Assembly: GCA_008632985.1 (NCBI GenBank)
Contig: QPGO01000020.1
Span: 310,001-374,000 of the forward strand
DNA length: 64,000 nucleotides
Source of the DNA: Psammoneis japonica
Lineage: Eukaryota
Reading direction: 5' to 3'
The position numbers and the translations under genes were made by a program. Numbering within the stretch: position 1 is the stretch's first letter; each line of letters opens with the position of its first letter. The notes below the pieces were generated by a model. That model saw only the letters and a program-made list of their open reading frames with translations, ran no database searches and was not told the DNA's origin. Of the stretch, positions 4,969 to 56,550 are shown piece by piece.

Positions 4969-5734
4969 AAATAGTAACTTCTGAGAAAAGTTGAAATGAT
5001 TCATGTTCTCTGGTACTCCTTCTGAAGCTTGGCCTAGCCAAATAGCTAGTAGACAACGCAAGAAAATCAAGGTGTCTTTTTTATCTCTCTGATGTCTCGC
5101 AGCATATCCTACTTGCTACATAGTTAATGATGTGTAGCTAACTGTCCCTCTTTGTGGGTTAGTTGGCTAGTTAGACCTCTGTCTGAGATTCCATAGCAGA
5201 CATCATGACGGGTAAGTAAAGAGTAGGGCTAGATTTTGGTCATTTTATGAAAAATCAAAATAGATTTTTTCTTATCTCTACTCTAGCAGGTATAGATTTC
5301 TACTCTAGCTAGTAGCTACCGTGGCTACGCCACCTAGAGAGTCTACCTTGCACAGTCGCCTAGAGACTTGGACAGTAGGTACGCTAGGCTAAGAGTCATG
5401 GGCTGGGACAGTTTACTAATTGGTCCCAACCCTCGCGTCCTAGGCGCGTAGGCCAAGCGAAAGATAACAATCGTTTCGACCTTAACAGCGGTGTCGTATT
5501 CGAAACAATGAGGTTCAACTGCCTCGTTTTTCTCTCGTTGGCTTCAGTTAGCTCTACTAGCTAGAGTAAGTGCGTACCGTACGGCAGAACCTCTCGTGTC
5601 GTGGTGACGTGGTACGAGTGCGTCTGTCGTGCGCGAGCTTCATCACTGCGCCTGTCCCACGCAGCAGATACACAGACCTCGGGCAATCGCACCAACAGCC
5701 ATCTTTGGTCATTTGTCACCAACGTTGTACATGA

Positions 5735-8700
5735 GGGCATTTAAGATCAAAAGGGAGGCCAGGGAACACTTTGAGAGCAGTGGTTGAGAGTTGCAATGCT
5801 TGTCTGCTGGTGCAGCTGCACCAAAGAGCTTCCAGAGTGAAAGGACACCCTGGTGCAACCAACCAACCCAAGAGCTGCAGGCTGAGGGCATTGAAGATCT
5901 CTGGAGGAACCCAGGGAACTCATTGAGAACAGTGGTGGAGCATTGCAAGGCTCATCTGGTGCAGTCGTAGCCACCAGTCACTTGATCCATTTTCCAGAGT
6001 GAGACCTGAAGCTTCTGCTGAATCCAAAGTGAAAGAGGACCCTGATGCAACCAGCCAAACAACTGCAGGTTGAGGGCATTGAAGGTCTCCCTTGGAGCCA
6101 AAAGAACACTTTGAGAATGGTGGTGGAGCATTGCAAGGCTCACCTGGCACAGTTGCAGAAACCAGTGACTTGATCCATTTGCCAGAGTGAAAGCTGAAAC
6201 TCCTGCCTCTGGTGTGAAAGGACACACTGATGCAGCCAAACAACCCAACAACTGCAGACTGAGTTCATTGAAAGTTTCCTGTGGAACCACAGGAACACTG
6301 CAAAGAGAACAGTGGTGGAGCATTTCAAGGCTCATCTGGTGCAATTGCAGCAGCCAGTGACTTGGTCCACATGCTGGAGCGAAAGTTGAAACTCCTGCCT
6401 CCAGAGTGAAAGGACACACTGACGCAGCCAAACAACACAACAGCTGCAGACTGAGTTCATTGAAAGTTTCCTGTGGAGCAAAAGGAACACTTTGAGAACA
6501 GCAGTGGAGCATTGCACAAGACTCATCTGGTGGGTTGCAGCAAGAACCAATCACTTGATCCACGCCAAAGCTGAAACTGCTGACTCCAGAGTGAAAGGAC
6601 ACACACTGATGCACCCAAACAACCCAACAACTCTGCAGGCTGCGGGCATTGAAAATCTCCAGGGGACCCCAGGGAAAACTTTAGAATTGTGGTGGAGCAT
6701 TGCAAGGCTTGTCCAGTGCAGTTGCAGCCACCAGTCACTTGGTCCATTCCGGAGGCCCAGTGAGACCTGAAATTGCCGAGTCCAAGCTGAAAGAGGACCC
6801 TGATGCAACCAACCAACCAAACAGCCAAACAACTGCAGGCTGAGGGCATTGAAGGTCTCCCTTGGAGCCGAACAAACACTTTGAGAACAGTGGTGGAGCA
6901 TCGCAAGGCTCATCTGATGCAGTTGCAGCCACCAATCCTTGATCCATGCCAGAGTCAGAGCTGAAGCTCCTGAATCCAGAAAGAAAGGACACACTGATGC
7001 AACCAAACAACCCAACAACTGGAGACTGAAGGCATTGAAAGTCTCTGATGGACCCAAGAGAAAACTTTGAGAATGGCCATGGAGCATTGCAAGCCTTTTC
7101 TGGGGCATTTGCAGCCACCAGTCACTCAATGCACTCCAGAGTGAGACCTGAAGCTCCTGACTCCAGAGTGAAAGGACACACTGATGCAACCAACCAGCTG
7201 AACAACTGCAGACTGAGGACTTTGACATCTCTCTTGGAACCAAAAAAACACTTTGAGAAAAGCGGTGGAGCATTGCAAGGCTCATCTGGTGCAGTTGCAG
7301 CCACCTTCCACTTGATCAATGCCAGAGTGAGAGCTGAAACTCCTGACTCCAGAGTGAAAGGACACACTGGTGCAACCAACCAACTGAACAACTGCAGATG
7401 GAGGGCATTGACATCTCCCTTGGAACCAAAAGAACACTTTGAGAAAGGTGGTGGAGCATGGCAAGGCTTGCATGGTGCAGTTGAAGCAAAAAATCACTTG
7501 ACCCATGCAAGAGTGAGGAGAGCTGAAACTCCTGACTCAAGAGTGAAATGACGCACTGATGCAGCAAACCAGCCAACCCAACAACTGAAAATTGGGGACA
7601 TTGAAGGTCTCTGATGGAATCCAGGAAACACTTTGAGAATGTTGCTGGATTGCTGAAGAGTTCATCTGGTGCAGTTGCAGCCACCAGTCACTCACTTCAT
7701 TCCAAAGTGAGAGCTGAAAACTGCTGAATCCAAAGTGAAAGAGGACCCTGGTGCAACAAACCAAACCAGCAATTGCAGGCTGAGGGCATTGAAGGTCTCC
7801 ACCGATGAAAACGACAACATGGATTCTGTTGATGATGGTCGGTTGCACCTGTTGAAATGCAAGAAATGCCGACACGACAGCAGGCAAGACAAGACGTGAA
7901 AAAAAAACGCCAACGCAGCAACAAACCAAACCAGGCTGTCATGACACACCTTGCCATGTTGATGATCACCCCGCATGACATGGAGGTGCCATGTGTTGCA
8001 ATGACTCAGAACGGCAATGTTCCATTTGTTGTGTTGTTGATGGTGGCCACGTTTCACCACACTCGAAAAAAAAATGCGCTCGTGTCGCTGTGGTGAACAA
8101 AGAGTTGAGAAATGTGGTGGATTGTTGCAAGGCTCATCTTGTTCAGAAACCTCCATGAGTCACTCCATCCCAGCAGGGTTGAGAGCTGAAACTCCTGACT
8201 CCAGAGTGAAAGGACACACTGATGCAGCAAACCAACAACCAGCCCAACAACTGCAGGCTGAGGGCATTGAAGGTCTTTGAAGGAACCCAGGGAACATTTT
8301 TAGAATGGCGGTGGATTGTTGCAAGGCCCATCTGGTGCAATTGCAGCCACCAGTCACTCAATGCATGCAAGAGTGCTCAGAGCAGAAACTCCAAACTCCA
8401 CAGAGAAAGAACACCCTGGTGCAACCAACCAACACAAGAGCTGCAGGCTGAGAGCATTGCAGGTCTTCAGAGGAACCTGCAAAACACTGTGAGAATGATG
8501 GCGGAGTGTTGCAAGGCCCATCTGGTGCACATGCAGCCACCAGTGGCTAAAATGCATGCCAAAGTGAGAGCAGAAAAACACCTGACTCCACAGAGAAACC
8601 AACAACTGCATGCTGAGGGCATTGAAGGTTTTCAGAGGGACCCAAGGATCACTTTTAGAATGGTGGTGGAGTGTTGGGAGGCCCGTCTGGTGCAATTGCA

Positions 8701-11700
8701 ACCACCAGTCACTGAATGCATGCCAGAGTGAGAGCTGAAATTCCCAACTCCACAGTGAAAGAACACACTCATGTGACCAACCAACCCAACAACTTCAAGC
8801 TGAGGGCATTGAAGGTCTTCAAAAGCACCCACAAAACACTGTCAGAATGGTGGTGGAGTGTTGCAAGGCCCATCTGGTGCATTTGTAGCCACCAGTCACT
8901 AAATGCATGCCTGAGTGAGAGCAGAAAAACTTTTAACTCCTCAGGGAAAGAACATCCTGATGCATCCATCCAACCCAACAACTGCAAGCTGAGGGCATTG
9001 GAGGTCTTCAGGGGATGTCAGGGAACACTTTTGGAATGATGGTGGCAGAGTGTTGCAAGGCCCATCTGGCGCAGTTGCAGCCACCAGTCAATCAATGTGC
9101 GCAAGATTGCTCAGAGCAGAGAAACTCCAAACTTCTTAGAGAATGAACTTCTCAGAGAATGAACACCCTGATGCACCCAACCAACCCTAGAGCTGCATGT
9201 TGAGGGCATTGAAGCTCTCTGGTGAAACCCAGAGAACACTTTGAGAACAGCGGCAGAGTGTTGCAAGGCTCATCTGGTGCAGTTGAAGCCCCAAGTCACT
9301 TCAGCCATGCCAAAGCAACAGCTGATGAAAGTCCTAACTCCAGAGTGAAAGGACACCCTGATGCAGCCAACCAACCCCACAACTGCAGACTGAGGGCATT
9401 GAAGGTCTCCAGTGAAACCCAGGGAACCCTTTGACATTGGTGGGGGGGGGGGGGGGGGTGTTGCAAGGAACTTCTGGGTGCAGTTCCAGCCCCCAGTCAC
9501 TTTCCCTCCGTGCAAAAGGAAGACCTGATGAAAGCTTTAAGTCCAGAGTGAAAGGGTGCCCTGAAATGCAACAAACACCAACAAACACAACAACTGCAGG
9601 CTGAGGGCATTGAAGGACACTAAAAAACAGCCAGGGAACACATTGAGAATGGTGATGGAGCATTGCAAGGCTCATCTGGTGCACTTGCTGCCAAGAGTCA
9701 TTTAATCCATTCCAGAGTGAGACCTGGCTGAAACTTCCAAAGTGAGTGAGGCCCCTGATGCGGCCAACCGGCCAAACAGCTGCAGGCTGAGGTCATTGAA
9801 TGTCTCCATTCTTGGAAACAAAAGAACACTTTGAGAATGATGGTGGAGCATTGCAGGGTTCATCTGGTGCAGTTGCAGCAACCAGGCACTTGATCCATGC
9901 CAGAGTGAAAGCTGAAACACCTGTGTCAAGAGTGAAAGGACACACTGATGCAACCAAACAACCAAACAACTGCAGACTGAGTTCATTGAAGGTTTCTCAC
10001 ATGAGCAAAGGAACACTTTCAGATTGGTGGTGGAGCATTGCAAGGCTCATCTGGTGCAGTTGCAGCCACCATCCACTTGATCAATGCCAGAGTGGTGAAA
10101 GCTGAAACTTCTGACTCCAGAACAAAATGACACACTGATGCAACCAACCAACAGAGCAACTGCAGGGTGAGGGCATTGACAATCTCCCATGGAACACAAG
10201 GAACAACATGAAAAAAGTGACAGAGCATTGTCAGACTCATCCAATGCAATTGCAGCCAACAATCACTTGATCCATGCCAGAGTGAGAGTCTGAAACCTCC
10301 AACTCCAGAGTGAAAGGACACAGTGATGCAGCAAACCAACCAATCCAACACCGGAAAGCCAAAGACATTGAAGGCCTCTGGTGAAACCCAGAAAACAATG
10401 TGAGAATGGTGGTTGAGTGTTGAAGATTTCATCTGGTGCATTTGCAGACACCAGTCACACAATCCATTCCAGAGTGAGACCTGAAACTGTTGAATCCAAA
10501 GTGAACAAGGACCCTGGTGCAACCAACCAACCCAACAACTGCAGGCTGAGGGCATTGAAGGTCTCCAGTCTCCAGCAGAACCCAGGGAACAGTTTAAGAA
10601 ATGTGGTGGATTGTTGCAAGGCTCATCTTGTGCAGTTGCCTCCATGAGTCACTCCATCCTGGCCAGATTGAGAGCTGAAACTCCTGACTCTGGAGTGAAA
10701 GGACACACTGATGCAGCAAACCAACCAACCCAACACCTGCACACTGAGGGCATTGAAGGTCTTTAGAGGAACCCAGGGAACATTTTTAGATTGGTGGTGG
10801 CTTGTTGCAAGTGAGGCCCATCTGGTGCAATTGCAGCCACCAGCCAGCACTCAATGCATGCAAGAGTGCCCAGAGCAGAAAAATCCAAACTCTCAGAGAA
10901 AGAACACCCTGATGCAACCAACCAACCCAAGAGCTGCATGCTGAGGGCATTGGACATCTCCAGTCAAACTCAGGGATCACTTTGAAAATGGCAGTGGAGT
11001 GTTGAAGGGTTCATCTGGTGCAGCTGCAGCCCCCAGTTACTTGATCCATCACACTCATGGCAAGAGCTGAAAGTCTTGAACCCACAATAAAAGAACACTC
11101 TCACGCAACCAACCAACACAACAACTGTGGGCTGAGGGCATTGAAGGTCTTCAGAGGAACCCACAAAACACTGTGAGAATGGTGGTGGAGTGTTGCAAGG
11201 CCCATCTGATGAATTTGCAGCCACCAGTCGCCAAATGCATGCCAAAGTGAAAGCAGAAAATGACCTGACTCCTCAGAGAAAGAACACCCAGATGCAACCA
11301 ACCAACCCAACAACTGCACACTGAGGGCATTCAAGGTCTTTAGAGGGACCCCAAGGAACACTTTTAGAATGGTCGTGGAGTGTTGCAAGGCCCATCTGGT
11401 GCAATTGCAACCACCAGTCACCAAATGCATGCCAGACTTAGAGCGGGAAAACTCCCAACTCTTCAGAGAAAGAGCACCCTGATGCAACCATCCAACCAAC
11501 ACGACAACTGCATGCTGAGGGCATTGAAGGTCTTTTGAGGAACCCAGCAAACACTTTTAGATTGGTGGTGGAGCGTTGCAAGGCTTGTTTGGTGCAGTTG
11601 CAGCCACCAGTCACTTGGTCCATTCCAGAGTGAGACCTGAAATTGCTGAATCCAAGCTGAAAGAAGACCCTGATGCAACCAACCAACCAACCAACCAAAT

Positions 11701-14700
11701 GACTGCAGGTTGAGGGCATTGAAGGTCTTCTATGGAGCTGAGCAAACATTTTGAGAATGGTGGCCGACCATTGTGAGAGTCATCTGGTGCAGTTGCAGCC
11801 ACCAACAACTTGATCCATGCCAGAGTGAGAGCTGAAACTCTTGGATCCAGAAAAAAGGACACACTGATGCAACCAAACAACTCAACAGCTAGAGAATGAA
11901 GGCATCAAAGGTCTCTGGGCATCCCAGAGAACACTTTGAGAATGTCTGTGGAGTGTTGCAAGGCTTTTGCATTTGCAGCCACCAGTTGCTTGATGCACTC
12001 CAGAGTGAGACCTGAAACTGCCACATCCAAAGTGAAAGAGGACCCTGGCGCAATTGTCCAACCCAACAACTGCAGGCTGAGGGCATTGCAGGTTGTTCTT
12101 GGAGCCAAAGGAACACTTTGAGATCAGTGGTGGAGCATTGCAAGGCTCATCTGGTGCAGTTGCAGCCACCATCCACTTGATCAATGCCAGAGTGAGAGCT
12201 GAGACTCCTGACTCCAGAGTGAAAGGACACACTGATGCAATCCACCAACTGAACAACTGCAGACTGAGGGCATTGACGTCTCCCTTGGAGCCAAAAGAAC
12301 AATTTGAGAAGGCTCATCTGGTGCAGTTGCAGCAACCAATCACTTGATCCATGCCAGAGTGAGAGCTGAAACTCCCAGCTCAAGAGCAAAATGACACACT
12401 GATGCAGCAAACCAACCATCCCAACAGATGAAAATTGGGGACATTGAAGGTCTCTGATGGAATCCAGGAAACACTTTGAGAATGTTGCTGGATTGTTGAA
12501 AAGTTCATCTGGTGCAGTTGCAGCCACCAGTCACTCACTCCATTCCAGAGTGAGAGCTGAAACTGTTGAATCCAAAGTGAAAGAGGACCCTGGTGCAACC
12601 AACAAACCAACCCAACAACTGCTTGCTGATTTCATTGAATGTCTCCAAGAAAACCAAGGAAACAGTTTAAGAAATGTGGTGGATTGTTGCAAGGCTCATC
12701 TTCTTCAGTTGCCTCCATGAGTCACTCCATCCTGGCCAGATTGAGAGCTGAAACTTCTGACTCCAGAGTAAAAGGACACACTGATGCAGCAAACCAACCA
12801 ACCCAACACCTGCACACTGAGGGCATTGAAGGTCTTTAGAGGAACCCAGGTGACATTTTAAGATTGGTGGTGGCTTGTTGCAAGGCCCATCTGGTGCAGC
12901 TGCAGCCACCACCAGTCACTCAATGCATGCAAGAGTGCTCAGAGCAGAAAAACGACCAAACTTCTGAGAGAAAGAACACCCTCCTGATGCAACCAACCAA
13001 CACAAAAGATGCAGGCTGTGGGCATTGAAGGTCTTTAGAGGAACTTGCAAAACACTGTGAGAATGGTGGCAAAGTGTTGCAAAGCCCATCTGGTGCATTT
13101 GCAGCCACCAGTCAACAAAAAATGCATGCCAGGGTGAGAGCAGAAAAACACCTAACTCCATGGAGAAAACAACATCCTGATCCAACCAACCAACCCAACA
13201 ACTGCATGATGAGGGCATTGAAAGTCTTCAGAGGGACCCAAGGAACACATTTAGAAATGTGGTGGAGTGTTGTGAGGCCCATCTGGTGCAAGTGCAACCA
13301 CCAGTCACTCAATGCATGCCAGAGTGAGAGCTGAAATTCCCAACTCCACAGTGAAAGAACACACTCATGTGGCCAGCCAACCCAGCAACTGCAGGCTGAG
13401 GGCATTGAAGGTCTTCAGAGGCACCCATGAAACACTGCTGGAATGGTTTTGGAGTGTTGCAAGGCCCATCTGGTGCATTTGCAGCCACCAGTCACTGAAT
13501 GCATGCCGGAGTGAGAGCAGAAAATCTCCTGACTCCGCAGGGAAAGAACATCCTGATGCATCCATCCAACCCAACAACTGCAAGCCAAGGGCATTCAAGG
13601 TCTTCAGAGGAGCCCAAGAAATGCTTTGAGAATGGTGGTGGAGTGTTGCAAGGCCCATCTGGTGCAGTTGCAGCCTCCAGTCACTGAATGCATGCCTGAG
13701 TGAGAGCAGAAAAATGCCTTGTTCTTAGAGAAAGAACATCCTGATGCAACCAACCAACCCAACAACTGCATGCTGAGGGCATTGAAGGTCTTCAGGGGAT
13801 GTCACGCAACACTTTTAGAATGGTGGGGGAGTGTTGCAAAGCCCATCTGGAGCAGTTGCAGCCACCAGTCAATCAATGCATGCAAGAGTGCTCAGAGTGG
13901 AGAAACTCCAAACTTCTCAGAGAATGAACACCCTGATGCACCCAACCAACCAAGCCAACAACTCCATGCCAAGGGCCTCAAAGGTCTTCAGAGGAACCCA
14001 GGGAACACTTTGACAATGGTGGTGGAGTGTTGAGGGGCTCATCTGGTGCAGGTGCTGCCCCCAGCCACTCAATCCATGACAAGGTGAGAGCTGAAATTCC
14101 TGACGACTCCTCAGTGAAAGAACACACATGCAACCAACCTGAAGCCAACCCATCAACTGCAGGCTGAGGGCATTGAAGGTCTTCAGCTGCACTCATGAAA
14201 CACCACAAGAATGGCAGGGGAGTGTTGCAAGGAACATCTGATGCAACTCCAGCCCCCAGTCACTTGCTCCATGCAAGAGGAAGACCTGATGAAAGCCTTA
14301 AGTCCAGAGTGAAAGACACCCTGATGCAACCAACCAACACAACAACTGCAGGCTGAGGTCATTGAAGATCTCTCTAGAAGTGCCCAAGGAACTCTGTGAG
14401 AATGTTGGCTGAGCATTGCAAGGCACATCTGGTGAAGTTGCAGCCCCCAGTCCAGTCACTCAACCCATGCCAAAATGGGACAAGGAAAATTCCCAACTGC
14501 TCCAGAATTAAAGGACACCCTGACACAACCAACCAATTCAACAACTGCAAGCCAAAGGCACCAAAGATCTCCAGGGAAAACAAGGGGAAACTTTGATGAT
14601 GGTGGCAGAGTTTTGTGAGACTCATCTGGTGCAGTGGTGGCCCCCCCCAGTCACTTCATCCACACCAACAAAATGTGAGCTGAAATTCACAACTCCAGAG

Positions 14701-15860
14701 TGCAAGGACACCCTGATGCAACCAACCAACCCAACAACTGCAGGCTGAGACATTGAAGGTCTCCAGGGGGATCCAGGCAATGCTTTGAGAATGGTGGTGG
14801 AGTTGTTGAAGAAGGCTCATCTGGTGCAGTTAAAGCCACCAGTCACTTCATCCATGCCAGATTCAGAGCTGAAACTCCTGACTGCAGAGTGAAAAGACAC
14901 ACCCTCATGCAACAATCAACCCAACAGCTGCAAACCCAGGGCACCAAAGATCTCAAATGAAGCCCAGGGAACACATTGAGGTTGGTGGCAGAGTGTTTCA
15001 ACAACACACATCTGGTCCAGATGCAGCCCCCACTCACAAAGTCCATGCCAGAGTTAGACCTGAAATTCCAATTGCTCCAGAGTAAAAGCGCACACAAGGG
15101 TGCAACCAACCAGCCCAACAAATGCAGTTTTAGGGCATGGAAGGTCTCCCCAGGGTTGCCTGGGAGCAACATGAGAAACAGTGGTTGAGAGTTGCAAGGC
15201 TTGTTGGGTGCAGTTGCACCCCCAAGCCACTTCATCCATGCAAGAGTGAGCTGAAATTCCTGGCTCCAGAGTGATGGGATGGGGCACCCTGATGCAACCA
15301 AACAACCCAACAACTGCAGGATGAGAGACTTTGAAAGGTCTCCTCCAGGGGAGGAAACACTTTGAGAAAAGTGGCTGAGTGTTGCACTTGTCTTGTGCAG
15401 CCGCAACTGGCAGCTGTGTCATTCTTGCCAGAGCCAGAACTGCAATTCCCACCTTTCAGTGTGAAAAGACACCCTGATGTGCAATCAACCAGCACAACAA
15501 CTGCAGGATGAGGGCAATGACAATGGTCTCTGGTGGAGCCCAGGGAACACTTTGACAAATGTGGTTGAGTGCTGCAATGCCCATCACTTTGCCCAATGCA
15601 GAGCTGGGGCTCACAACTCAAGAGAGTGAAAGCAAACAATGGCACAACTGACAAAGACATCATCTGAACACTGTGAGAGCTGTGGTTGAGCACTGCAAGG
15701 CCCACATTTCTTTGTTTCACCCAACCAGAAAAGAGAGTGAGATTTCAAGCTCTCCCACTTCCTGAGTGAAAGGACACCCTGGCACATGGCCTGCCAACAC
15801 ACCAGCTGCAGACTGATGGTGTTGGCGGTCCAGGGAACATTGGGAGAACTGTGGTGCAAC
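5735..15860. repeat. Diverged tandem array (satellite), ~186-bp monomer, roughly 50 copies, with higher-order blocks
   Basis: The unit GAACACTTTGAGAATGGTGGTGGAGCATTGCAAGGCTCATCTGGTGCAGTTGCAGCCACCAGTCAC...CAACAACTGCAGGCTGAGGGCATTGAAGGTCTC recurs about every 185-195 bp (e.g. 6104, 6292, 6485, 6874, 7245, 7432). ORF 7048-7551 shows a 62-aa period. Confidence 0.95.
7800..8095. mobile_element. ~290-bp non-array insertion interrupting a satellite monomer
   Basis: Absent from the homologous higher-order copies (~10560-10590 and ~12640-12665). It has CACC/GGTG ends and no recognisable family. Confidence 0.55.
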
Positions 15861-18460
15861 AAAAAAAGATTCATGCATGCACAGTGCAGACTTTCTCCTC
15901 CTTTTTCATGCAGCACAAACACCTCAAAATCATCCATTGCACAGCAGCACAAAAACCTGCATGGATTCTGTGTGTGTCATTCTTTGTGGGTTGTTGTGAT
16001 CCCCCACTTCCACTTGGAAGCTTGAGTCAGAATGAGTTGTCACATTGCCAGCAACTTGCACAAAAGTCAGCGACCACATGCAATGACCCATGCTTGTGAC
16101 AGCAAGGAAGGAAAAGCACAATGCACCTGTCCTTCATGCTGGCTGGTTCTACAATGTGAATTGGCGCACATGGCCACAACAGATTTTCTTGCACCAGGAG
16201 CAGTGAATTTGTGTGCTTTCCCTCTTCCGCACCACTGACAGACTTCCCGCCATTCTCCACGGCATGGGCTGTTTCTCAAAACAATGTCTCCTAAAGTCAA
16301 AATGCCATTTCATTTTGCTGCTTGATGTTGTTTTTGGTGATCAGACATTTTGGGAACAGTCGTGTGGCATGATGTTCTCATGTGTTTCTGTGATGTGGAC
16401 CTGATGTCACAAAAAATTCAAACCTGCTCATGTTTCAAACAAGATCTCACCTTGCACAAAAACCACACAATCTCACAATGCTTTTCAATCACATCTAAAG
16501 TGTCCAAACAAACAATGAGATGCAACCTTTCTTCCCGTGCAACTCCAATGGAGAGCATGGGATGGGCTCACACGAGTGTTGGCAACAAACGCAGCAGGCT
16601 GTTGAATGAATGCAAGGTCTCTCATGACATGAAGTCAATGAAAAGAGGATGTCCTTCAAAACAACTCCAATGGCAGCCATCAGCTCAGTTGAGCATCATT
16701 CCAAGCAAACACGATGCCTCCGACATGTGCTTGTTGCAGACAAACTGACACAAGAGCATCACTGCATCCTCAGCAACATCCAAGCATGAGTCACCGCAAG
16801 GCATTTATGAACCATCTCACCTGGAAGTGCAGCCAGAGCTTTCACATTGGCCACAGACATGCTTGGGTTCAGATGAGTTGCAACCACACTCCGATGTCAG
16901 CTGTGGCTTGGCCGATCATCAAATCTTCAGCAGATTTGACAGCTGACATGTTGAAAACGGGGGTCAGTTTGAAAACAGGAAATGAAAAGCAACCACTTGT
17001 TTGGAGGGTTTTTTTTGTGTCAAAACATTTGCAAATGAATGAAGACATTGTTCTCCAGTTGTCAAAGTGATTGCAAGCCAGCAATCAACAAGTCATCAGT
17101 TGCAACAGCTCATCAACAAAAACAGCAAAGGTCTTTTCATTGCAAAAATCAAAATGCTCAACCCTGCTTTCAAACCACACTGGTTGTGATGCAGTGTCTC
17201 TGGCAGCCAAACAAGCCAGTCACTTGTGTCAACATTGTGTGCCAGCCAATGTCCCAATGGCAAGACAAATTGCACAGCAAGCAAAGATGGGGGAGCACAT
17301 GAACACGCTTCATTGCAGAAAAAATGCCTGGGTGCTGCTTCAGCCAGCAACCTGAGTGCAGTTGCTTGCAATTGTCAGAGATGAGAGCAGCCTTGTCTGC
17401 ACTTCATTTTGCGACTTTCCTGAAAGCAGAAATTTGCAGAGTGCTGCAAGCAACATTTCACTCCCCCCCCAAAAATCTGCTTCTGCTTTGAGTCGCTCCA
17501 AGTGATGTTGCATCCCCTCAAGTTGCGCTGTGGCCCTGGGAACACCCTGGCTCTCTCAAAAAGCATTCTTTGTTTCCTGCACACAATGGACAAAGAGATC
17601 AAAGCAAAACAAGAGGGTGAGAAGACAACAGAGTTCATCAAATGCCATGGAACAATGCACTTGCTGTGAGAACACAAGAGCAAAGAAGCACAGTGCAAGC
17701 TCAGAGAATGTTTTCATTTGTTTTCATTGTCAATCAGTTTTTGGGTTGAAAGCTGCAGGTCCAATGGTGTCAGCATAAAATTGACAATGCTTGTTTTTGG
17801 TGGTGATGGCCGCTGTTGCAGAGATGCTCCATCCATGTCGATGTTTTGGCAATTCTGGAAACAGCCATTTCACCTGGGTTTTGGCCACGCAGCAGAAAAC
17901 ACATGATGTGAGTGAATTAAAACTTGTGGCATTCTAAAAGCAAGACAGCAGATTTCTGACTGATCCACCAAATGACTTTTCCTCACAGCCTTTGTTCCTC
18001 ATTGTTCGCTTCTCTCTGCGTCAGGTGCACTTGTGCTCACAATCGTGCGCGTGCCTCGTGCGCTGTTTGAGAGGTGCTGATGATCCAGGTTTGACAACCC
18101 TCCTGTGACAGAGCAAGCAGTCATGGTGCTTTTTGGGCAAGATGCCAACTCAGCAACTTGTGGCCACCAAGCCAGCAAACGAAAGCAATGACTTCGACTT
18201 TTGCCAAGATGTGCAGCTGCAGGCGGGCGGGGGCTGCCAAGAGATTTGTTGTTTTTTGCATTGCAACAACTTTCAGAACCTGACATTTGGCACAATCAGT
18301 GACAGCAACCAGTGGCAGCATGCATTAGATCTAAAGGGAGTGAGGGAAGCAAGTGCGTGGCCACGCACTTGTGTTCACAGGCTCAAAGCCTGTGAGTCGT
18401 CGTCGATTGATTTGACTCGTCAGCAAGATGCTCTGACCTGCGACCGATCGACCGATCAGC
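15860..18460. other. CpG/TpA-depleted degenerate sequence (probable TE or gene relic) adjoining the array
   Basis: TG/CA-rich with only YTAR-type and rare other TAs. Its ORFs are rich in Cys/His/Gln, essentially lack Tyr and have no recognisable domain. Confidence 0.7.
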
Positions 18461-21379: not shown

Positions 21380-24234
21380 ATGAGAAGGACAAGAGACTTT
21401 ACCGGTACTTGGTATTCGGTGCTTCTTACTATCGTGGCTCTTGCATGTCTCTGGAGAAATGGAGGCGGCCATGACGGAGACACTCACCAAACTCAATCAT
21501 TGCAGAAAGTTCTGCGTGTCACCCCAACTTGGGAAACCACGAGCGTAGTGCCACGGCCTCACCGCCGCACTCTGTGGTCCCTCGTGGAAAATTCAGAAAG
21601 AACGATTATTCTTAGAATTTGGTATGGTCCAGAGAGCTTTTACCCAGATTATGCGTCAAGAATACTGGAGGAAGATTCTCCGCAAGACGATGAAGTTTTT
21701 TCTGTGGCCATTTCGTTTGAAGACATTTGTAAGTCGAATTCATGGCTTTTCAAGAGAGCCGTATGTGTTGCATTCGCATACAATTTTAGCTCACGCATAG
21801 TGTACTCTCGTTGCCTTTCCAAGACAAAACGATCATATTCATGGCGGCAACCTGGCTGCTTGGTAGCCTCGGTGAACTGATTGGCATGCCGAGTCTCGTG
21901 GGAGAAATCATTGCAGGTTTTCTATTGGGTCCTCCGCTGGCCGACATTGTGCCTTTCCCAGAGGCTATGGTTTTGATTGGAAACATTGGGCTGATTGGGA
22001 TGATTTTAGAATCCGGTATTGACATTGATGTTGGGCAACTCAAAGAAACTGGTCTCCGTGCCGTATTCATGGCGTTTACCGGCACGACTCTGCCACTTTT
22101 GACGGGGTTGGGACTGGGCAGAGCGGCTGGACAGGACTGGCGTTCCTCGATTGCCATTGGTGCGTCGTTTGCCCCATCTTCCTTGGGGTCGCTGGTAACG
22201 CTCTTTCAGCTGGAGAAGTTTTAAATACTCCGATTGGACAAATGATTGTAGCCGCCAGTGTTGTGGATGATGTCTTGGGTTTAATACTGCTGAGTATTCT
22301 CGAGGTGTTCGTCAAGGATGATCCGCAAGTATTTGATTTTGTACTGCCATTCATCTCATCATTTGGTTACCTTATTGTCCTGGGCTATTCGGGTGTCACT
22401 TGGATGCCTCGACTAATTGAACACAAAATCATGCCGATGTTTCGAGTGGAGCACCGCGAATTTGTTGCGTTTGGTCTCATGTTTGTGATCTTGCTTGTAT
22501 ACATGCCGCTTTTGAACTATTCCAAGGCAAGCTATCTCACGGGGACCTTCCTCGCGGGCCTGACTTTCTCGCAGATAAACTCTGTCCATGCGTCCTTTGT
22601 CAACAAGGGTCGGCAGCTATTGAACTGGATGATGAGGCTACTCTTTGCTGCGACGATCGGTTTCCAGGTACCAATCAAGAAGTTTCACGACCTATACGTT
22701 CTCAGATGGGGAGCATCATTTAGTGAGTAAATCGTGCCATGCTTTGCGTTGTTTTCAGGCTTGTTGTTTGTGACCCATTCGCTCACCACCGCGCTTGGTC
22801 TACAGTCCTGCCAATCCTCGCAAAACTGCCGCTCTTCTTGTTCGTCCCGCGTTTTCAGAAAGGGCTCCCAGATGATTTCCCGTACGATCCGTATAAGAGA
22901 GATGCTCTCATTACTTCTTTAGCAATGACCTGCCGCGGTGAATTCAATTTCATTATTGCAGCATTTGCTCTGGGTGAAGGGCTGTTTGATGCCTACCTCT
23001 ATTCTGCGGTTGTGCTGGCTGTGCTTTTGAGCAGTATCACATCGCCACTGCTGCTTCTCAAGCTTGCGAGGCACTACAATGAAAAATCAAAGTCTTTTGT
23101 GAATGGTAACCATCCTGTTCAGCGCATCGAGAACACGTGTGACGGGTATCGTCCACTTTATTTGGGTATCCAGGCACGCACTCCCATTCATTGGGGACTA
23201 CAAAACACGTTCAAGAAGGCATTGGAGAGCAATGGTCTCATCATCATTGACCACCGATCGTGGCATACACTGGGACATGATGCCGTTGATATCACAGAAC
23301 TATTCGTGCAAGACACTGTAGTTAAGGTTAGAGTACGTGCATGCTTTGGCGGAGATCCAGAGTCTTTGGTGGGCACGACCGTCGGGGGCGATGGTGAAAA
23401 AGTCTTGACTGGCGTTCCTCTTGTTGTAGACCCCGTAGACCTAGACAAGGTTCTAAGAGAACAAGAAAAAGAAGTGCAAACGTCAGATGATTCCAGTACA
23501 AACTCAGCAGCAAATGAAGAACAGGAAATCGAAGATCGTTGTAATGAAATCCGAACAGGTCAGTGAAACCAATGCATACAATCCGATCCGATGTCCTTGA
23601 TATTTTTTACACTCATGGTTTAACGGTGGTTTTCTTACGTCAATTTGCAGTTCTGATGGGTTGCCTGTTATCAGATGATGCGGAGGACTACAATATCCAG
23701 GTAACGCAATGGACACCTTACACGGTGTTTGGGAGTAAGACCTCCAGTGGACCTGGAAGGGTGGAGTATTGCTTGCAATCTCATGTCAGCAATAACGACT
23801 ACGTTGAAGAAGATTTAGCAGGAGACTCGCATGACGATACTCCTACGCCCCCACCACCGCCGCCGTCGTCACCACCACCGCAGGGATTTGGCGCGATCCG
23901 GCGACCTTCTCGAGTCAGACGATACACTAGTGCCTCATCTCGACCTTCAGATCAAGAAGACAACACAGTACACCATGACCCACACTTGGCAGCTGATTTA
24001 TGGGATGCAGATGCAGTTGCGCAAGATGTGGCACGCCATGGCTTTATCATGGCACCGGTGGGTCACGGACATGATGTCGTAGAGGGCACTGAGCGTCGTG
24101 GCAGTGGAATCATGGGCAGCCCACGGAGACGAGCCAGTACCTACGATTCTGCATTCTCAGCAGTCGTTGCTGACGAAGAAACCTTTGCACCTGATACAAT
24201 CAAGGAGCGCTTGCATGGCTACGTGCGTGATTAG
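21380..24234 (+). CDS. CPA2-family Na+(K+)/H+ antiporter with a long C-terminal extension; 4 exons
   Basis: Motifs GMPSLVGEIIAGFLLGP, ESGIDID, AASVVDDVLGL, GTFLAGL and TCRGEF. GT-AG introns at 21729-21823, 22723-22805 and 23559-23650 restore the frame. One missing G at 22185-22188. Confidence 0.9.
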
Positions 24235-24374
24235 GTTCACTGTTACTTCGTTCGAACAGCACTCGCGGGAATTGAAAACAGTTCTCATGAGTGGTCTTCC
24301 GCTTATAACGTCAGGATATCTGCCAGCATCAATACAAGGAGTATTCCTCTCTTTTTAGACAAAAACCGAGATAT

Positions 24375-24755: not shown

Positions 24756-24859
24756 TGCGCTTTTCTTTAGCCTTTGTCGACACTGCATCAACCCTTTATA
24801 TGATGTGAACGCTCCGCAACTTGCAGGGCCCTACCTATTGCCAATGTCGTGATTTCGTG

Positions 24860-36700: not shown

Positions 36701-39500
36701 AGCTTCAAATGTGCAGCTCTTGTGTTTGTGCAATGGCCCTGACAAGGGTTTGGCCTGATGAACACACAAGTGTTTGAGAAGGGTGTTCTGAGACAGATCA
36801 AAACAAAGTGGTGTGAGGTGCAGCAGAAAAGAGCACAAGCTGCTTTAAACTGGACCTCATCTGGAAGATCTGGCCCATCCTCAAGTCTGCAACCTGCAAC
36901 TGGGAAATTGGGGAGAAAACAGGGGCAGTTGGCAGCAGAGCAATGGAGCACCACTGATGGAAGGTGAAGGTGCCATGTTTCAAGACAATTGGACAAGGCA
37001 GAAATCATTCTCTTTCTGTTGTCTCAAGGTTTGATGCTGACTTTGTTCTTCAAAATTGCTGCTGCAGGCACAATTGCTCAGTGTTGGACACAGAAGATGT
37101 GTTGTGAGCTCTTGTTGTCACAGCTTGTGACTTGACAGATGTTCCTGAAATCTTGTTGTTTGATCCTGCAATTGTTCCGCAGGAAGCTTGTGTGTGAGGG
37201 TTCCTGCAGCACAATGTGCAGTGCCAGCACTCCAAGAAATTGTCATCCCCATCCTCTTGGCTGCTGGCATTGCAACAGGTGCCAAGTGGTGATGAGTGAC
37301 ATCATGATGTGGCTTGGAAGCAAAGCAATGCTGGTGGCTGGGTGTGTGCAATTTTTCTTTCCCCCTCTGTTCTCCAAAGAAAAGGAGAAAGTTTGCTTTG
37401 GCACACATGTGTGCAATCATGGGGTTGCCAAGACATTGTTTGTTTTGGCATTTCTGTCAATTTGGTGAGCAGCTTTGTTGGCTCCATTCATCCAGGTGTT
37501 CATCATTGTGCTTGTTTCTGGAGTTAAAAGCAGTCCAGTGAACTTGCTCCATCTCTCAAAGCACTTTTGGCTTTTGGGCAGCACAGGAAGTCAAATTTGT
37601 TGGCATGGTTTTTGTGAAGGGCTTGCTGCTTGACAGCAAAATAGAGATGGTTGGCACCATCCTTGTGAGAGCATTGTTGTGCACACTTTTGTCTGTGGCA
37701 CCCACACTCAAGATGCTGTGGATGTGCTCTTGAACCATGCAAGCAAAGAAGATGAGTTGCTCACAGGTGGCAGTGCTTGCCGCAGCATTGTCATGACCTG
37801 GGGCTGTGCTGCGCAATCTTTTCAAGGATCACTTTTGCATTTTTTTAAGAGCTCAGTCACAAGCAAGAACAAAAGTTGCAGGTCAGGGATTTCTTTGCTC
37901 TGTGCAGACAGATCTCCACTGAGCTGCCAAGATGCTTGCATTGCTCTTCTTCTTGGCACAACTCTCTGGAACTTGTTTGGTGCTCTGGCACACATTGGGG
38001 CTTGGCATCTGCATGTCAAGCACTCCAATGTTGAAGCAACAAGAAGCTTGTTTCCCCAGAATCATTGAGTGGTGTGATCTCTCCATCTTTTTTGACTCCA
38101 CAGATTGTGACTTGATTTGTCTGTCTTGCTGGGCTCACGTCATAACTTGAATCTCCTGGCTCATTCTGGCAACTTTTGTGTGCACAAATTTCTGTTTTGC
38201 ACACATGAGAAAGGTCAAGTGCTTGTCTTCAGCAAGGCTGGCAAGTCTGCTGTGTGGTCAAGCTCACCTGACTTTTAGTCAGTCCTGAGCTCAGCAGAAA
38301 ACTTCCAACCACAGGCATGCCCACATGCTGTTGCTGGAAAATGACATGGCTTTCTTGCTTGACAATGGTGCCATGCATCTCTGAACTCTTGGACACTTGG
38401 CAAGAGAGTTCAACAACTGTCATTTTGACCTTAGAGATCAGAGTGGTTGAAAATGGTGCATGCTTTGCAGCTGGTCTCTTTTAGAGAGTGTGCTTCAATC
38501 ACACAGGAGATTTTCAACATGGCTCAGATGTCTGGCTCATTTCCTGCACCCTTGAATTCTCCACTTCAGCCATGCTGGAGATTTTCAACATGTTTTCTAG
38601 CTTTGGCTCATTTTCCATGCCCTTGTGCTCTTCTGGGCTCTCTGCTCTGAGCATTTTTGTTGCATTTCAAAATTGCTCACCAGGGCAGCAAAACATGTTT
38701 TTTCCCACTGCCGCTGGGCAGGCATTCATGAGAAAGAACACCAGCTTCGGCTGGCTTTTCAGCACTTTGGTGCCATGTTGGCACAGGCTTTGGTGCCATG
38801 TTGGCACAGGCTTTGTTGTGCTGACAAACAGGTGCAATGCAGTGGAAGAGCTGCCACAAGGCAAGTTGTGTGGGTTGTTGTCAAAAATCTTGTTTTCATT
38901 GAGAAAAGAGCTTGTTGGGTGAAGTCTTTGTCTGTCAACAGCAGCTTTTCAACCATCTCAGTTTTTTGTTTTTTCTTTTTTGGCAAGTTTGCTGAGAGTT
39001 GAAAGAAGAAGATGTGGCTGAGTCATGAGCCTTGCCGCAAACGAAGCCAGCTGCCATGCGTTGCTGTGCTCTGCAAAATGCAGAGCAGCGCACCATGTCA
39101 CCATGTGCTGCTCTGCTGCTGGAAAAAGAAAAAATGATCACACCAACAACCAAAAGCTCTTCTCTGTTTGCTGATGCAACAACTGCTCAAGTGCCTGATG
39201 CTGCCCACTGAATCAAGAAGAAGGGAAAAGAGCTTTTTGTGCTGCCCTCCCCTGCTTTCTTGCGGTGCGGTGCTTCGAGCTGCTGTGCTGCTCAGCACCA
39301 CTCTCCTCCCTTTCTCTGTTCTGTTCCCACCCAAATCAGACAACTTGGGACTGGGAGATTTTTCCTTGTCATTTGACAGTTTTCTCTCTGACTGGTCATC
39401 ACACAATTGAAACAACGACATGCAGAGGGAGCGGAGGGCATGCAGGAGCGGCAGGGGGGCAGTGGGTGGTGTTTGGCACGATTGATGACTGCATCAAATA
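33720..39500. other. CpG/TpA-depleted domain of ~5.8 kb, probable decayed transposon
   Basis: Abrupt compositional switch between ordinary genes, TG/CA-rich, residual TA mainly YTAR. The size is TE-like but no family was recognised. Confidence 0.8.
38766..38814 (+). repeat. 23-bp direct tandem duplication containing an internal inverted repeat
   Basis: TTTGGTGCCATGTTGGCACAGGC x2, with GTGCCA-TGT-TGGCAC inside. Confidence 0.85.
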
Positions 39501-39895
39501 AAAATCATGAATCTGCTTGTCTTCTTTAGCAGTGCGACAACGGTAGCAGCCGAGCGTACCGTAGAATTCAACGCGATACCGATTCTTAGAGTATATTCAA
39601 AGGTCTACATGCTTGAATATTGCATTTTGAATCGTGAGTGTCGCGAATCGCCAATTTCGAACGACTGTCATCCGACTTCGCGCACCTTGGACCTTCACAG
39701 CCAACGCACAAAACACCTCCCGCGACTTCCTCATCACCTCAATCCAAAAGCAAGCGGGACTTGGCTAACATCAGCACCTACGATTGCTCATCATTTCAAA
39801 ACTCAGAAGAGCATCTCTAGAGCGCCTTCGTCTTTCTTATTATCAGTTGAAACCAGGTGTACCGTCAAGAAAGCATCACACCATTTCGATAGAAC

Positions 39896-47264: not shown

Positions 47265-47400
47265 GCACAACAAGCGACACTAACTTGACTCAGCCTTTTA
47301 AAAACCATACATATTGAATATAAACACAAAAATGAAACTCCTATTATTTTAACAGTTAGATTAACCCAACAACAATGGTAATGCCGATACTCCTGTCTGA

Positions 47401-49393: not shown

Positions 49394-50582
49394 ATGCTGT
49401 CCACGGTGAGTACGTACCGGCGTGGGCCGATCGTTTTCTGATCAGGTTGCTTGGGTTGACCGAACTCGGATTTGACCGTTAACACGACTTGCCAACCGCA
49501 GAGCCGCCAGATGATTGTCTCTCACATCTTTCCTCTGCAACTATCTGAACAGCTCATTTGCTCCAAGGAGGAGCACCGTCGTCGCGTCCTACAGCAATAT
49601 CCGGAGTACGAGGATAAGCACGGGCGAGAAGGGCGTGGAGATATACGCTCGGTACCGTGCTGAAGCTGGCACTGGCAACCACGCACAACGTGAGGCCCAG
49701 GCGGAATACGAATCCTATATGAACCGGGTTGGTGTTGCTGAAGACATGTGCATGACCTACGACGCCATTCGAAAGGACCAGGCCAAAAAAGCCCCCAAGT
49801 ACGCTGTGGTTGAAGACGTTTTGTATTATGGTGGGATCAAGTTTCCGGCATGGGAAGACTATTACTCTATCATGCAGGAAACTATCGCTGAGCTGGGAGA
49901 TGCTGCGACTGAGGAAGACCTTCGGCTTGCCGTCAAGTCCAAAATGGTCATTCGTGACAATATTTTGGAGTTTTTTTTTCGCCCGCCAACCGAACAACCA
50001 AGCCCTCAAGACCAGGGTGGTACTCGTGATGTGGAAGGTCTCGATTCAAACAACAATTTGGGCTCCCATTCGGATGCCAATTTGGCTGCTGAGCCACAAC
50101 AAGCAGTTGCTCCCCAGCAGGGACGGACGCATGCAGCTCCAATGAGTCAAGCGAGCTTCATGGCCATGATGATGGGGTTTGCGAACAATGGTGCGTCCCA
50201 CACCTTCAACTATACTAGCATTCATGACTCAAACATAAACAGAGTTGGCCAAGGATCGGATGACAACAGTGGAGTCACCAATGAAGACCTCGCGAACATG
50301 ATTCGACGGCTAGAGGAGGGCCAGCGCAGCATCCGAGAAAGCATCCAAGAAGTACAGCGTGTCTTCCAAGAAGGACAACGTAGCACCCAAGAAGCACTCA
50401 GCATCCTCCAAGAAGAACTCAGCGATCTCCAAAATCGCAACCAAGAAAGCAAAGGCGAAACGGGTGGGAATGGCAACCTTGATGGCTTGTCCGGGAAGGA
50501 CTGTCCCACATTGTCCACGGAAGACGGCAACCAAGAACTCGAAGAAGAGGTGAACGCCGAACCTCCATTTGGCTCACTTTGA
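49394..50582 (+). CDS. Hypothetical protein with a C-terminal coiled coil
   Basis: ATG at 49394, intron 49406-49552 (GTGAGT...CAG), one frameshift near 49623, then a long open frame with a heptad-rich segment. Confidence 0.6.
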
Positions 50583-51405
50583 CCCAGTGTTCCGCGTCGA
50601 TGTAGCCAGCGTGCCAACATTGGTCAGCGGCTTCGCCGTTCCGGGCATGATGACTGAGTTTCTGCAGGCTGTCCTTTACGTTTTGACAAATGGTATTCTC
50701 TGCATCGCCGTCTCCAATGGACCGACGTATAAATAATTAGTCGTATTTTTTGTCTCCAAACGCTGATTCAAGCTGCCGACACCATAGTAGCATGAAGCTA
50801 ATCATCTACCTAGCTATTCATACCGTAGCTATGGCACAGTAGAAGTAGCTAGCTAGAGATATGATATGGTACTTCTACTTACTTTAGCATCGACAGGGTG
50901 CTAGTCTGATTTGTGACATTATTTAGGATATACGATATACTATTTGTACACAGTAGGTAAGATGTGAGAACTAACTATCGTAGAGAAGACTCCCTTGTCA
51001 GAGGTGAAAATGCCTACGGTGCAATAGTAGGGATGATCAACCATGAGAAAGAACGCAGCGTACCAAATCATTCACAACTCCGTTTCTCTTTGCTCGAAGC
51101 CCAAGCCGGCTATAAAATACCACGGTGCATTATCAACCACCAACAAGCAAAGCCCCCCGTCAAAATTCTGAACGTCCCACTGACGCCCGCCTCTACACAC
51201 GTGTAGCAAACCACGAAACAGACAAGCACAAAACACAACGCGCCCATAAGCCAGAACCCCAAGAAAAGATTCAAAAGCACCACCAGCCCCTAAACCGTTG
51301 CGCAAAGAAAGTATCACTCGATTCGTGCAGGATCCTGACGCAAATTAAAAGCTTGAATTTCAACAGCTTGTCCCAAGTTGGAAAGAGCATTCTTCCCGCT
51401 ACTGC
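50577..51405 (+). repeat. Segmental duplication, copy 1
   Basis: Colinear with 56525-57455, e.g. TTTGACCCAGTGTTCC..., TTTGTACACAGTAGGTAAGATGTGAGA and GTGCAGGATCCTGACGCAA. Confidence 0.92.
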
Positions 51406-54284: not shown

Positions 54285-54544
54285 AGTCGTTTGGTTTATA
54301 ATAGCGTAAAGGCTGCTTCGGCTGGTACTGTATGGTTGATTCTGTTCGTTCGACGGGGGCGATTGGTTCATTCGATGCAACAGCAACAGAAACAACAAAC
54401 ATGTGATGTCCAACCGCCAACGTTTTGACTTCTGCGGGAGACATGCGGCCGCGCGCGCGCCCGTCACACCCAACACGTACACGCACGTACGCGATGGACC
54501 AAAATAATCTAATATTCGTATTTATGAATGGACACAAGCATCAT

Positions 54545-56550
54545 TTAACATGCTCCGTGAATGAAGAATGACATTGATTTTGTCCGTCCTGTTGAACCGC
54601 GGCAACCGCGTGCATGCTGAACCAAAACACTGACACTGGTGCGCTAACCTGCCTTTCAGTTTTCCTTACACCACTGCAGCACGATGAGCCAGTTTTAGGA
54701 AGCTGCTTCATGTCACAAAGTGCGTGGAGACTTCTGTTCTCCAGATTTTTTTTCTGAAAAATGAGGCCAATGTCTCGTTGAGAGGTGCCGGCATGTTTGT
54801 TCTCCTGGCCTCCATGTTGTTGCTCCTAAAATGCTCAGTGGCAGAGGACCACAAAAACACACAGCTTCATGACAAGCATGACAAGCACTTCTCTGTCTGT
54901 GCAGAGTCTCTCGTCAAGTCGCGAGAGAAATTCAAACACCACGAATCTGCCCGGACTCACTGGACACTGGCACTGGTGGAGGAGATTTGAAGCTCAACTT
55001 CTCGGCAAAACGATGCACACTTGACAACGAGATGGAGAAAACACTTTTAGAAAGAATTTTGCAACAATGGTCAGAGGACATTGCAGGCCATTTGGAGAGA
55101 ACTGGCAGCACTCAAGGTGGCGAATCATGCCCAATGTTGGCTTGTGGAAGACAGCCAACACAAAAGAAAGAGAAGAGTCCGCCATGGAGATGGAAGACTT
55201 TCAAGATGCCATGATGGAAGATCAAGTTGCTGATCTCCATCATCGCAAGAGAGTGGCAGCTCCAAGAAACTTTGCAGCTCCAGCTCTGATGAGGACTGTG
55301 GATCAAGAAGTGGTGCCTCGTGCAGCACATCATGTTGGACAAATCCAAAAAGATGCAGGTTGCAACTGCTGCCACCTTGCCATGGATGATGGGCACTGCT
55401 GTCAATCCCTCACTGTGTGCTGCCCATCTGACTGAAGGGTGGGCTCCCCAGGTGGCCACACTTGTGCCACCTTGGTTTGCAACACATCAGGGCTGTGGGA
55501 GGCAACGTTTGGGAGGCAAAGACAACTCACAACAGGAGCGTCAAACAGGAAAGCTGCAGCTTGAAGCTGCTTTTTGGAGCAGAGTCAGAAACAAAACAGC
55601 TGTGAAGCTGTTCTTGGAGGGAGGAGCAGCTTCTCCTTCATCTTCAGCTGCAGCGGCCTTCCCTTGTTTTTTTCTGTGTCAAGAAAGGACATCTTTGGTC
55701 ATCATGGCTTCTTCTGTTGAGCCCTCTCCTTCTTCTTTGTGCCATCTTCACATTTGGCAGTCGCACCCCTGCGAGAGCATGCATTTCCTCCATCAGACAA
55801 GTGCAAGCAGCCTCTTGACAAAAGGCTTGGGGCTTGAAGCTGTGGTCATTCAAGCAATCATGGAAAATCCACTGGCACTGCAATGCTGAGGGGCAGTGTG
55901 CAACAACACCTCAGCCACCAGATGCAGAGATCTGAGCTGACTTTTGCGTTGTTTCGCCACTTGCCAATGCAAGTCAGACCAAGGGCAAGTGTGTGGGGAA
56001 AACAAACTGTTCGCCACCCCTGAGGAACAAGAAGAGTGCATTCAAGCATGGCTTGCCAACACTGCAAATTTGCTCCAGCCTGGTTGTGTGATCTGAAAAT
56101 TGCATGGTGCACAGCTTGGCAGCAGTGTGCAGAAACTTCTCTGCACAGCATGGGGGACACAGAGGCTTTGAGTCCGGTGAGTCAGTTGCTGTGTTGCAGT
56201 TGCAGAGAGCCCTTTGTTTTGGCCAAGGACTCACTGTTGCTTGTGATTGATTGCTTTTGTCAACTGTGCAAGCAGGGAGAAAAGGCAGACATTTGCACTC
56301 TAGAAGAGCCCAAGCATCGCAGCTCGTGCTGCGCCCCGGGTGAAAATCACGGACGGCAAAGTTTCTGCATGTTGTTGGAATCAAACATGCGAATCATTTT
56401 TTTTACTCGCAAGAGCAACCCGCCGCATTGACAAGAGTGCCAGCAATGAAACTGCTTTGCAGCTGGATGTGTTGGGCACACAGCCACCGTGTCATTAAAT
56501 TGAGTGGGACTCTGGGCAAGTTCTCTTTGACCCAGTGTTCCACGTCGATG
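54545..56550 (+). pseudogene. CpG/TpA-depleted domain containing a decayed coding sequence
   Basis: Protein-like frames (KEREESAMEMEDFQDAMMEDQVADL; ENKLFATPEEQEECIQAWLANTANLLQPGCVI) with no Tyr and excess Cys/His. Confidence 0.6.

Follow-up and report, generated by a model that had tools for sequence, protein, structure and literature searches.

Before 2026, to our knowledge, no eukaryote was known to have a process by which TpA is purged from selected parts of its genome. In the literature searched, TpA-directed hypermutation was described only in the preprint of Mettrop et al. (bioRxiv 10.64898/2026.01.13.699255, April 2026), in which TpA was found to be converted to TpG/CpA in viral DNA that is integrated, and silent, in the genome of the chlorarachniophyte Bigelowiella natans. 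Of the 302 new mutations in its mutation-accumulation lines, two silent viral inserts accounted for 231. All but one of these (230/231) were A>G or T>C, all on TpA, at a rate of about 6e-7 per site per generation vs 3.5e-10, the de novo changes coming in bursts. The B. natans genome was also reported to contain 124 clusters of windows poor in TpA and rich in CpA and TpG, and one class of its coding sequences to have a TpA frequency of 0.0018. An ADAT2-like adenine deaminase acting on DNA was proposed by the authors. The words CpG, diatom, stramenopile, satellite and tandem do not occur in the main text of the preprint, and 'TpA' is absent from a diatom mutation-accumulation paper (PMC6604790). 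The searched literature yielded no account of diatom 5-hydroxymethyluracil and none of N6-methyladenine placed at a TA motif. Here, a stretch of 64 000 nucleotides of Psammoneis japonica (contig QPGO01000020.1, positions 310 001 to 374 000) was analysed. It is referred to below as the window, and all positions are those of the window. Four blocks of it, each intergenic and flanked by genes, are nearly free of both TA and CG and rich in TG and CA.

These blocks were compared with the described systems. As in B. natans, the pattern is that of TpA changed to TpG/CpA on both strands, in regions with sharp limits, set in a nuclear genome that is otherwise ordinary, with a long-term loss of TpA and gain of CpA and TpG (TpA frequency about 0.0018 in one class of B. 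natans sequences according to the preprint, 0.0016-0.0040 inside the blocks). The hosts belong to different supergroups, B. natans to the Rhizaria and the present host to diatom-like stramenopiles. Unlike in B. natans, the loss is saturated over whole islands, CpG is lost too and a tandem satellite is among the targets. The blocks show no detectable trace of a virus or transposon, and the process is known from its footprint, not from a rate or from events. For CG, the likeness is with methylation-driven CpG decay, in which CpG is lost, TpG/CpA is gained and CpG-rich patches are spared, as in unmethylated CpG islands; this decay, however, leaves TpA untouched. CpG stands at about 0.2 of expectation in vertebrate bulk DNA, and the CG depletion of the blocks (0.08-0.19) is about as strong or stronger. 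In diatoms, silent transposons are CG-methylated by DNMT5, and DNMT4 relatives of RID, of unknown function, occur in many species (PMC9998398).

Repeat-induced point mutation of fungi (RIP) is, like the pattern in the blocks, transition-only, confined to marked DNA with sharp edges and destructive of coding capacity. It depends on an enzyme of the RID/DNMT4 type before meiosis. Through C:G>T:A transitions, mostly at CpA, it makes TpA and lowers G+C, whereas in the blocks the reverse is seen and G+C is unchanged. The RIP indices of block 3 (TpA/ApT 0.07; (CpA+TpG)/(ApC+GpT) 2.14) point in the direction opposite to RIP. Furthermore, RIP is triggered by duplication; here block 1 holds a tandem array, but the other three blocks are unrepeated within the window. 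In Escherichia coli, very-short-patch repair depletes CTAG. There too, biased handling of T:G mismatches turns a TA-containing word into CA/TG forms, but this loss is bacterial, genome-wide, tetranucleotide-specific and far weaker, and it serves as an analogue only for the repair bias considered below.

All 16 dinucleotides were counted in a 1-kb scan of the window, with expected counts derived from base composition. In the four blocks, CG and TA stood at 0.0-0.3 of expectation and TG and CA at 1.5-2.3. Block by block, the ratios to expectation were 0.03-0.07 for TA, 0.08-0.19 for CG and 1.72-1.87 for CA/TG; the unique part of block 1 (15601-17934) gave 0.04 for TA and 0.19 for CG. G+C inside the blocks (about 0.46-0.50) was unchanged compared with the outside. 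Pyrimidine-purine steps made up a share of 0.227-0.242 inside the blocks vs 0.242 outside, so transitions alone suffice for the pattern; inside, 95-96% of these steps were CA or TG. When all CG and TA of the flanking DNA were randomly converted in silico to TG or CA, CA/TG ratios of 1.94-1.98 and a G+C of 0.468 were obtained, near the values of the blocks. Among 3-mers and 4-mers, none besides those containing CG or TA was strongly off its Markov expectation. The leftover TA preferred TTA/TAA contexts, and the strand asymmetry between TG and CA was small. The blocks have sharp edges, about 100-200 bp wide; on the left side of block 1, 7-13 TA and 4-11 CG in each 100 bp gave way to 0-2. The intergenic DNA at 5200-5500, left of this block, is TA-rich (7-13 per 100 bp) up to the edge, so the ordinary non-coding DNA of the organism is not TA-poor.

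The depletion is also visible in translation. TA-free DNA excludes two of the three stop codons, and open reading frames (ORFs) in it are therefore long. Of the ORFs of at least 100 aa, 69 lay inside and 100 outside the blocks, with Tyr at 0.03% vs 2.00%, Cys at 6.4% vs 2.7%, His at 5.2% vs 2.4%, Gln at 6.2% vs 4.2% and Trp at 3.25% vs 1.5%. An earlier reading of the window, made from the letters alone (hereafter the sequence-only reading), had described four sharply bounded domains poor in CG and TA and rich in TG and CA, set in flanking DNA with plenty of both, and had noted that ORFs in them nearly lack Tyr and are enriched in Cys, His, Gln and Trp. This description was borne out by the counts, including those outside the blocks (table), and its coordinates were correct to within a few hundred bases of the computed footprints. 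It had also been right that fungal RIP is unable to explain the TA loss, TpA being nearly absent and CpA/TpG doubled at unchanged G+C.

The satellite of block 1 provides a record of substitutions. With nhmmer, 55 satellite matches were obtained, 48 of them near full length. The alignment had 187 columns and a mean pairwise identity of 0.725, and changes were counted among the existing monomer copies. At consensus TG/CA steps of the 48 monomers, 99 double vs 48 single transitions were found (1944 cells); at all other steps, the numbers were 85 double vs 1018 single (6884 cells). The Fisher odds ratio for this coupling at TG/CA was 24.7 (p = 4e-58), with the proviso that the cells are not independent since copies share ancestry. 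In 12 mutual-nearest monomer pairs (81-94% identity), 20 TG|CA doublets were counted vs 10 doublets of all other transition-transition kinds; the single transitions of these pairs involved CG in 11 cases, TA in 9 and neither in 72. Single columns are split in the same manner: TG 27, CA 16 and CG 1 at column 104; TG 18, CA 12 and TA 1 at column 146; TG 25, CA 12, TA 5 and CG 1 at column 177. One satellite copy has TTTTGG where related copies have TTTTAG. As TG<->CA doubles exceed their single-step intermediates, new CG or TA is removed in place. Doubles occurred at a frequency of 5.1% vs a per-site transition frequency of 7.4% elsewhere in the satellite, approximately as predicted if a step mutates and is then resolved with equal odds to TG or CA. 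Relative to TG+CA, the leftover share in the blocks was 2.0-2.8% for CG and 1.4-1.8% for TA. If a steady state has been reached, CG would be removed about 35-50 times, and TA about 55-70 times, faster than ordinary transitions proceed. One monomer, at about 9440-9460, carries a run of about 17 G where other copies are mixed; the run may have truly expanded or be a homopolymer error of long reads.

The footprints of the two depletions were then delimited separately. At seven of the eight block edges, the TA-poor footprint extends 79-484 bp past the CG-poor one. Inside block 1, a short island with about 16 CG and no TA interrupts the CG-free runs and the CG-poor footprint and lies within a TA-free run (6683-8300). 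At the right edge of the same block, 100 bp (18000-18099) contain seven CG and no TA. Five 200-bp windows had no TA and at least 8 CG, four of them in or at blocks; none had no CG and at least 6 TA. TA and CG footprints that differ in this way indicate two processes, not one. The observations point to islands defined by TA loss, with CG loss nested within and sparing CpG-rich patches. The 200-bp window 50401-50600, outside any block, has 13 CG and no TA. A 111-base direct repeat (88% identity) links 50574-50684, at the end of the ORF 49515-50582, with 56522-56632, just right of block 4.

The coordinates of the blocks and of their parts are collected in the table. In block 4, the TA-free run 55049-56300 measures 1252 bp. 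Blocks 2-4 consist of complex unique sequence, with no similarity to one another or to the rest of the window at E values of at most 1e-5; similarity between or within blocks is limited to the satellite and to short repeats inside block 2. Two small tandem repeats were found, one in block 2 (26215-26372; 81-base unit, 2 copies) and one in block 3 (38765-38815; 23-base unit, 2.2 copies).

Table. Blocks of the window depleted of TA and CG, their parts, and observed/expected dinucleotide counts
Feature	Positions	Description	Observed/expected counts
Block 1, TA-poor footprint	5743-18331	12.6 kb; satellite array and ~2.7 kb of unique DNA	
Block 1, interval counted	5689-17934		CG 76/732, TA 49/767, TG 1221/607, CA 1476/926
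Satellite	5831-15585	Diverged tandem array, unit ~186-191 bp (Tandem Repeats Finder)	
Satellite, left part	5831-7800	Period 186, 74% matches (Tandem Repeats Finder)	
CG-keeping island	7811-8082	~270 bp interrupting the satellite; normal CG density, no TA	
Satellite, right part	8599-15585	Period 191, 69% matches (Tandem Repeats Finder)	
Unique right part of block 1	15601-18331	Non-satellite; CG back in the last ~440 bp (17887-18331), TA still absent	
Block 2, TA-poor footprint	24837-27285	CG-poor 25025-27080 nested within	
Block 2, interval counted	24930-27132		CG 17/129, TA 4/146
Block 3, TA-poor footprint	33708-39526	5.8 kb; CG-poor 33857-39058 nested within; complex unique sequence	
Block 3, interval counted	33830-39267		CG 26/309, TA 18/371
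Block 4, TA-poor footprint	54697-56403	CG-poor 55181-55653 and 55956-56324 nested within	
Block 4, interval counted	55029-56317		CG 13/81, TA 2/80
Window outside blocks		42 824 bases	CG 2424/2539, TA 1631/2817

Searches for a coding or mobile origin of the blocks gave negative results. From the blocks, 98 stop-free ORFs with 70 aa or more were compared with Pfam; none reached the cut-off, and five were sub-threshold at E values of 0.005-0.04. For the ORF 35281-35781 (block 3), no relative was found among 1.84 billion representatives, and the ORF 33690-34538 had no usable match in the Atlas. In a purine/pyrimidine alphabet, the period-3 signal of the blocks was comparable to that of shuffled sequence (median 0.81 vs 0.69). 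Weak patches occurred at 25.5-26.9 kb, and the 81-base repeat of block 2 may underlie them; a purine/pyrimidine codon model is underpowered even on real genes. No terminal direct or inverted repeats were seen at the block edges in the purine/pyrimidine alphabet, in a weak scoring regime and with a block 4 score due to self-overlap. No tRNA genes or Rfam families were found in the window. A 20-base core of the satellite was matched at three loci in metagenome contigs, all of them chance matches with ordinary CG and TA. To judge from the base sequence, the blocks hold no detectable protein remnant, and their origin was therefore not assigned to a virus or a mobile element.

The flanking genes are eukaryotic. 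They encode FF and WW domains, a PLOD-type glycosyltransferase, FG-GAP repeats, a Na+/H+ exchanger, MutS domains and the N-terminal domain of an F1-ATPase beta subunit. For the FG-GAP protein, the nearest Atlas cluster was mostly Bacillariophyta, and another search gave only distant matches; the FF-domain protein had no relative in metagenome contigs. The Na+/H+ exchanger is divided among three adjoining ORFs, each in another frame (22029-22730, 22727-23566 and 23548-24234), through indel errors of the assembly or because it is a pseudogene. Single-base insertions relative to the window were observed in X1, a second read set. In the region 60448-62753, a 202-aa ORF covers only the N-terminal domain of the mitochondrial F1-ATPase beta subunit, with up to 92% identity to algal proteins; its best named relatives are from the diatoms Cylindrotheca (84%) and Conticribra (81%). 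On these relatives and the Bacillariophyta cluster, the host is termed diatom-like here; the protein collection contained nothing nearly identical. This ORF overlaps the start of ORFs with MutS domains III and V in other frames, which may reflect a gene fragment, introns or an assembly problem.

Taken together, the blocks are probably long-lived, non-coding and silent islands that have been driven to mutational equilibrium by two context-specific transition processes confined to them. In the first process, TpA would be lost by A:T>G:C transitions, giving TpG on one strand and CpA on the other, and the extent of each island would be set by this process. Its signature is that measured directly in the silent viral inserts of B. 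natans, for which a DNA-acting adenine deaminase has been proposed. In the second process, CpG would be lost by C>T transitions, most simply by deamination of 5-methylcytosine, over a slightly smaller nested footprint that spares small CpG-rich patches. Both processes would still be active: a new CG or TA arising from TG or CA would quickly return to TG or move on to CA, and such quick resolution would cause copies to differ by TG<->CA double changes. The sequence-only reading had likewise proposed a second mutator that converts TA to TG/CA in chosen DNA. The domain-restricted transition process which that proposal implies is supported by the coupling in the satellite, the split columns and the TTTTGG copy. 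The name RIP-like, in the sense of repeat-induced, is not supported: blocks 2-4 lack similarity to each other and to the rest of the window, and the signature of RIP is the opposite one. The remark in the sequence-only reading that it knew of no description of such a process has been overtaken by the hypermutation measured in B. natans (Mettrop et al.).

Several points weigh against this two-process explanation. The polarity of the TA changes is thin, as it depends on a few satellite sites and parsimony. Methylation, silencing and a deaminase in the blocks, as well as the reason why these stretches would be targeted, were all inferred. Nothing marks the blocks as viral or foreign in the manner of B. 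natans, given the Pfam result, the missing relatives and the shuffle-level periodicity. The main text of the preprint does not mention CpG, so that a double depletion is without precedent there. The read set X1, to which the sequence was compared, is possibly from the sample behind the assembly, and its library type and platform are not on record. Finally, the unique parts of the blocks (15601-17934, 24930-27132, 33830-39267 and 55029-56317) share a further signature, with GC at 1.31-1.48, AT at 0.71-0.82, AA/TT at 1.24-1.28 and CC/GG at 0.78-0.86 of expectation, which is not reproduced by converted flanking DNA (predicted GC 1.09-1.14, AT 0.93). The excess of the GC dinucleotide was equal after AG, GG and TG and is not tied to the TG context. 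Foreign descent of the blocks or an additional bias may lie behind this GC/AT/AA signature.

In a long-read assembly, CG and TA could have been misread as TG/CA if they were heavily modified. The window does resemble such an assembly with leftover indel errors, as seen in the three frames of the exchanger and in the single-base insertions of X1. X1 contigs, with a word depth of about 58, agree at about 99.8% with block 2 and a large part of block 3: over 24000-26598 they differ by 6 letters and 2 gaps, over 37884-39036 by 2 letters and 2 gaps. They contain the same TA/CG-free sequence. The differences listed for blocks 2 and 3 concern 16 positions, and 143 further differences lie beyond those listed. 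Among the listed ones, four sites make CG in X1 where the window has TG or CA, which would suit a misreading, as would the unrecorded platform of X1, and two make TA. Three listed differences are adjacent TG<->CA doublets (34610/1, 34625/6 and 34950/1), at which X1 carries the partner dinucleotide (CA in place of TG) and not CG or TA. A strand-majority error predicts agreement between neighbouring sites, but in satellite monomers 0-8 column 104 is CA and columns 146 and 177 are mostly TG. Moreover, CG-rich patches occur within TA-free DNA, and the TpA signature of B. natans was obtained with Illumina data (Mettrop et al.). We consider such an artefact very improbable. Run X2, whose kind is not recorded and which shares its sample with X1, had a word depth of 20-70 over the genes at 27.7-31.5 kb and of about 0 (at most 2.6 per bin) over blocks 2 and 3, and was not used as evidence.

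If the sequence is taken as correct, three other explanations have to be weighed against two island-confined processes. A single deaminase active on both A and C in DNA, similar to ADAT2, could edit TpA and CpG in marked chromatin with no need for cytosine methylation. Both depletions do occur in the same four islands at similar strength, and the ADAT2 proteins of amphioxus and Trypanosoma are cited by Mettrop et al. as acting on A and C. On the other hand, CG persists in TA-free patches and edges and the reverse is never seen, the target geometries are unlike (a C whose 3' neighbour is G, an A whose 5' neighbour is T), and the hypermutations of B. natans were A>G or T>C in 230 of 231 cases, with a G:C>A:T rate that was not raised (Mettrop et al.); a single enzyme is therefore unlikely. 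Mutation bias cannot be separated by sequence data from a bias of fixation or repair, and mismatches at pyrimidine-purine steps of the islands might be resolved towards TG/CA during repair or gene conversion, for which the satellite copies could form heteroduplexes. This seems quite unlikely: the window offers no partner sequence for blocks 2-4, the rule would be an awkward one (a T:G mismatch next to G would have to become A:T, and the same mismatch next to A would have to become G:C), and the changes in B. natans arise de novo in a single-copy region (Mettrop et al.). It is similarly doubtful that the DNA arrived poor in TA and CG, as inserts of a virus or other element that avoids both dinucleotides, with no special process in the host. 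In its favour, the edges are sharp, and the GC/AT/AA signature shared by the four unique parts was not obtained by converting host DNA. However, the satellite shows the constraint at work in place after its amplification, TA-free sequence continues into CG-normal edges adjoining host genes, and neither a protein trace of a virus or mobile element nor, in a weak test, terminal repeats were found.

A TA mutator is not categorically new, since B. natans provides an experimental precedent in another lineage. What is new here is the diatom-like host, the saturation over whole islands, the satellite target, the co-occurring and separable loss of CpG and the lack of a detectable viral or mobile remnant. 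The window presents the end state of a signature of the B. natans type in an unrelated algal lineage, with TA at 3-7% of expectation beside TA-normal genes, and the process may be widespread among marine protists. For annotation, long Tyr-less ORFs in such DNA should not be called genes. Nested but separable footprints, and with them independence from CpG methylation, narrow the search for the enzyme and its guide, and scanning assemblies for TA-free islands, with or without CG, offers a cheap way of finding targets. A wider reading, offered tentatively and as a possibility rather than an expectation, is that TpA editing of silenced DNA is an old genome defence shared across the stramenopile-alveolate-rhizarian (SAR) group, here Rhizaria and stramenopiles, and not peculiar to a single chlorarachniophyte. 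In the present genome it would have gone to saturation, acting not only on invaders but also on satellites and unique non-coding DNA, in a chromatin compartment wider than the CpG-methylated one and independent of it. If this were true, TA-free islands would provide a map, readable from sequence alone, of an unrecognised silent chromatin state.

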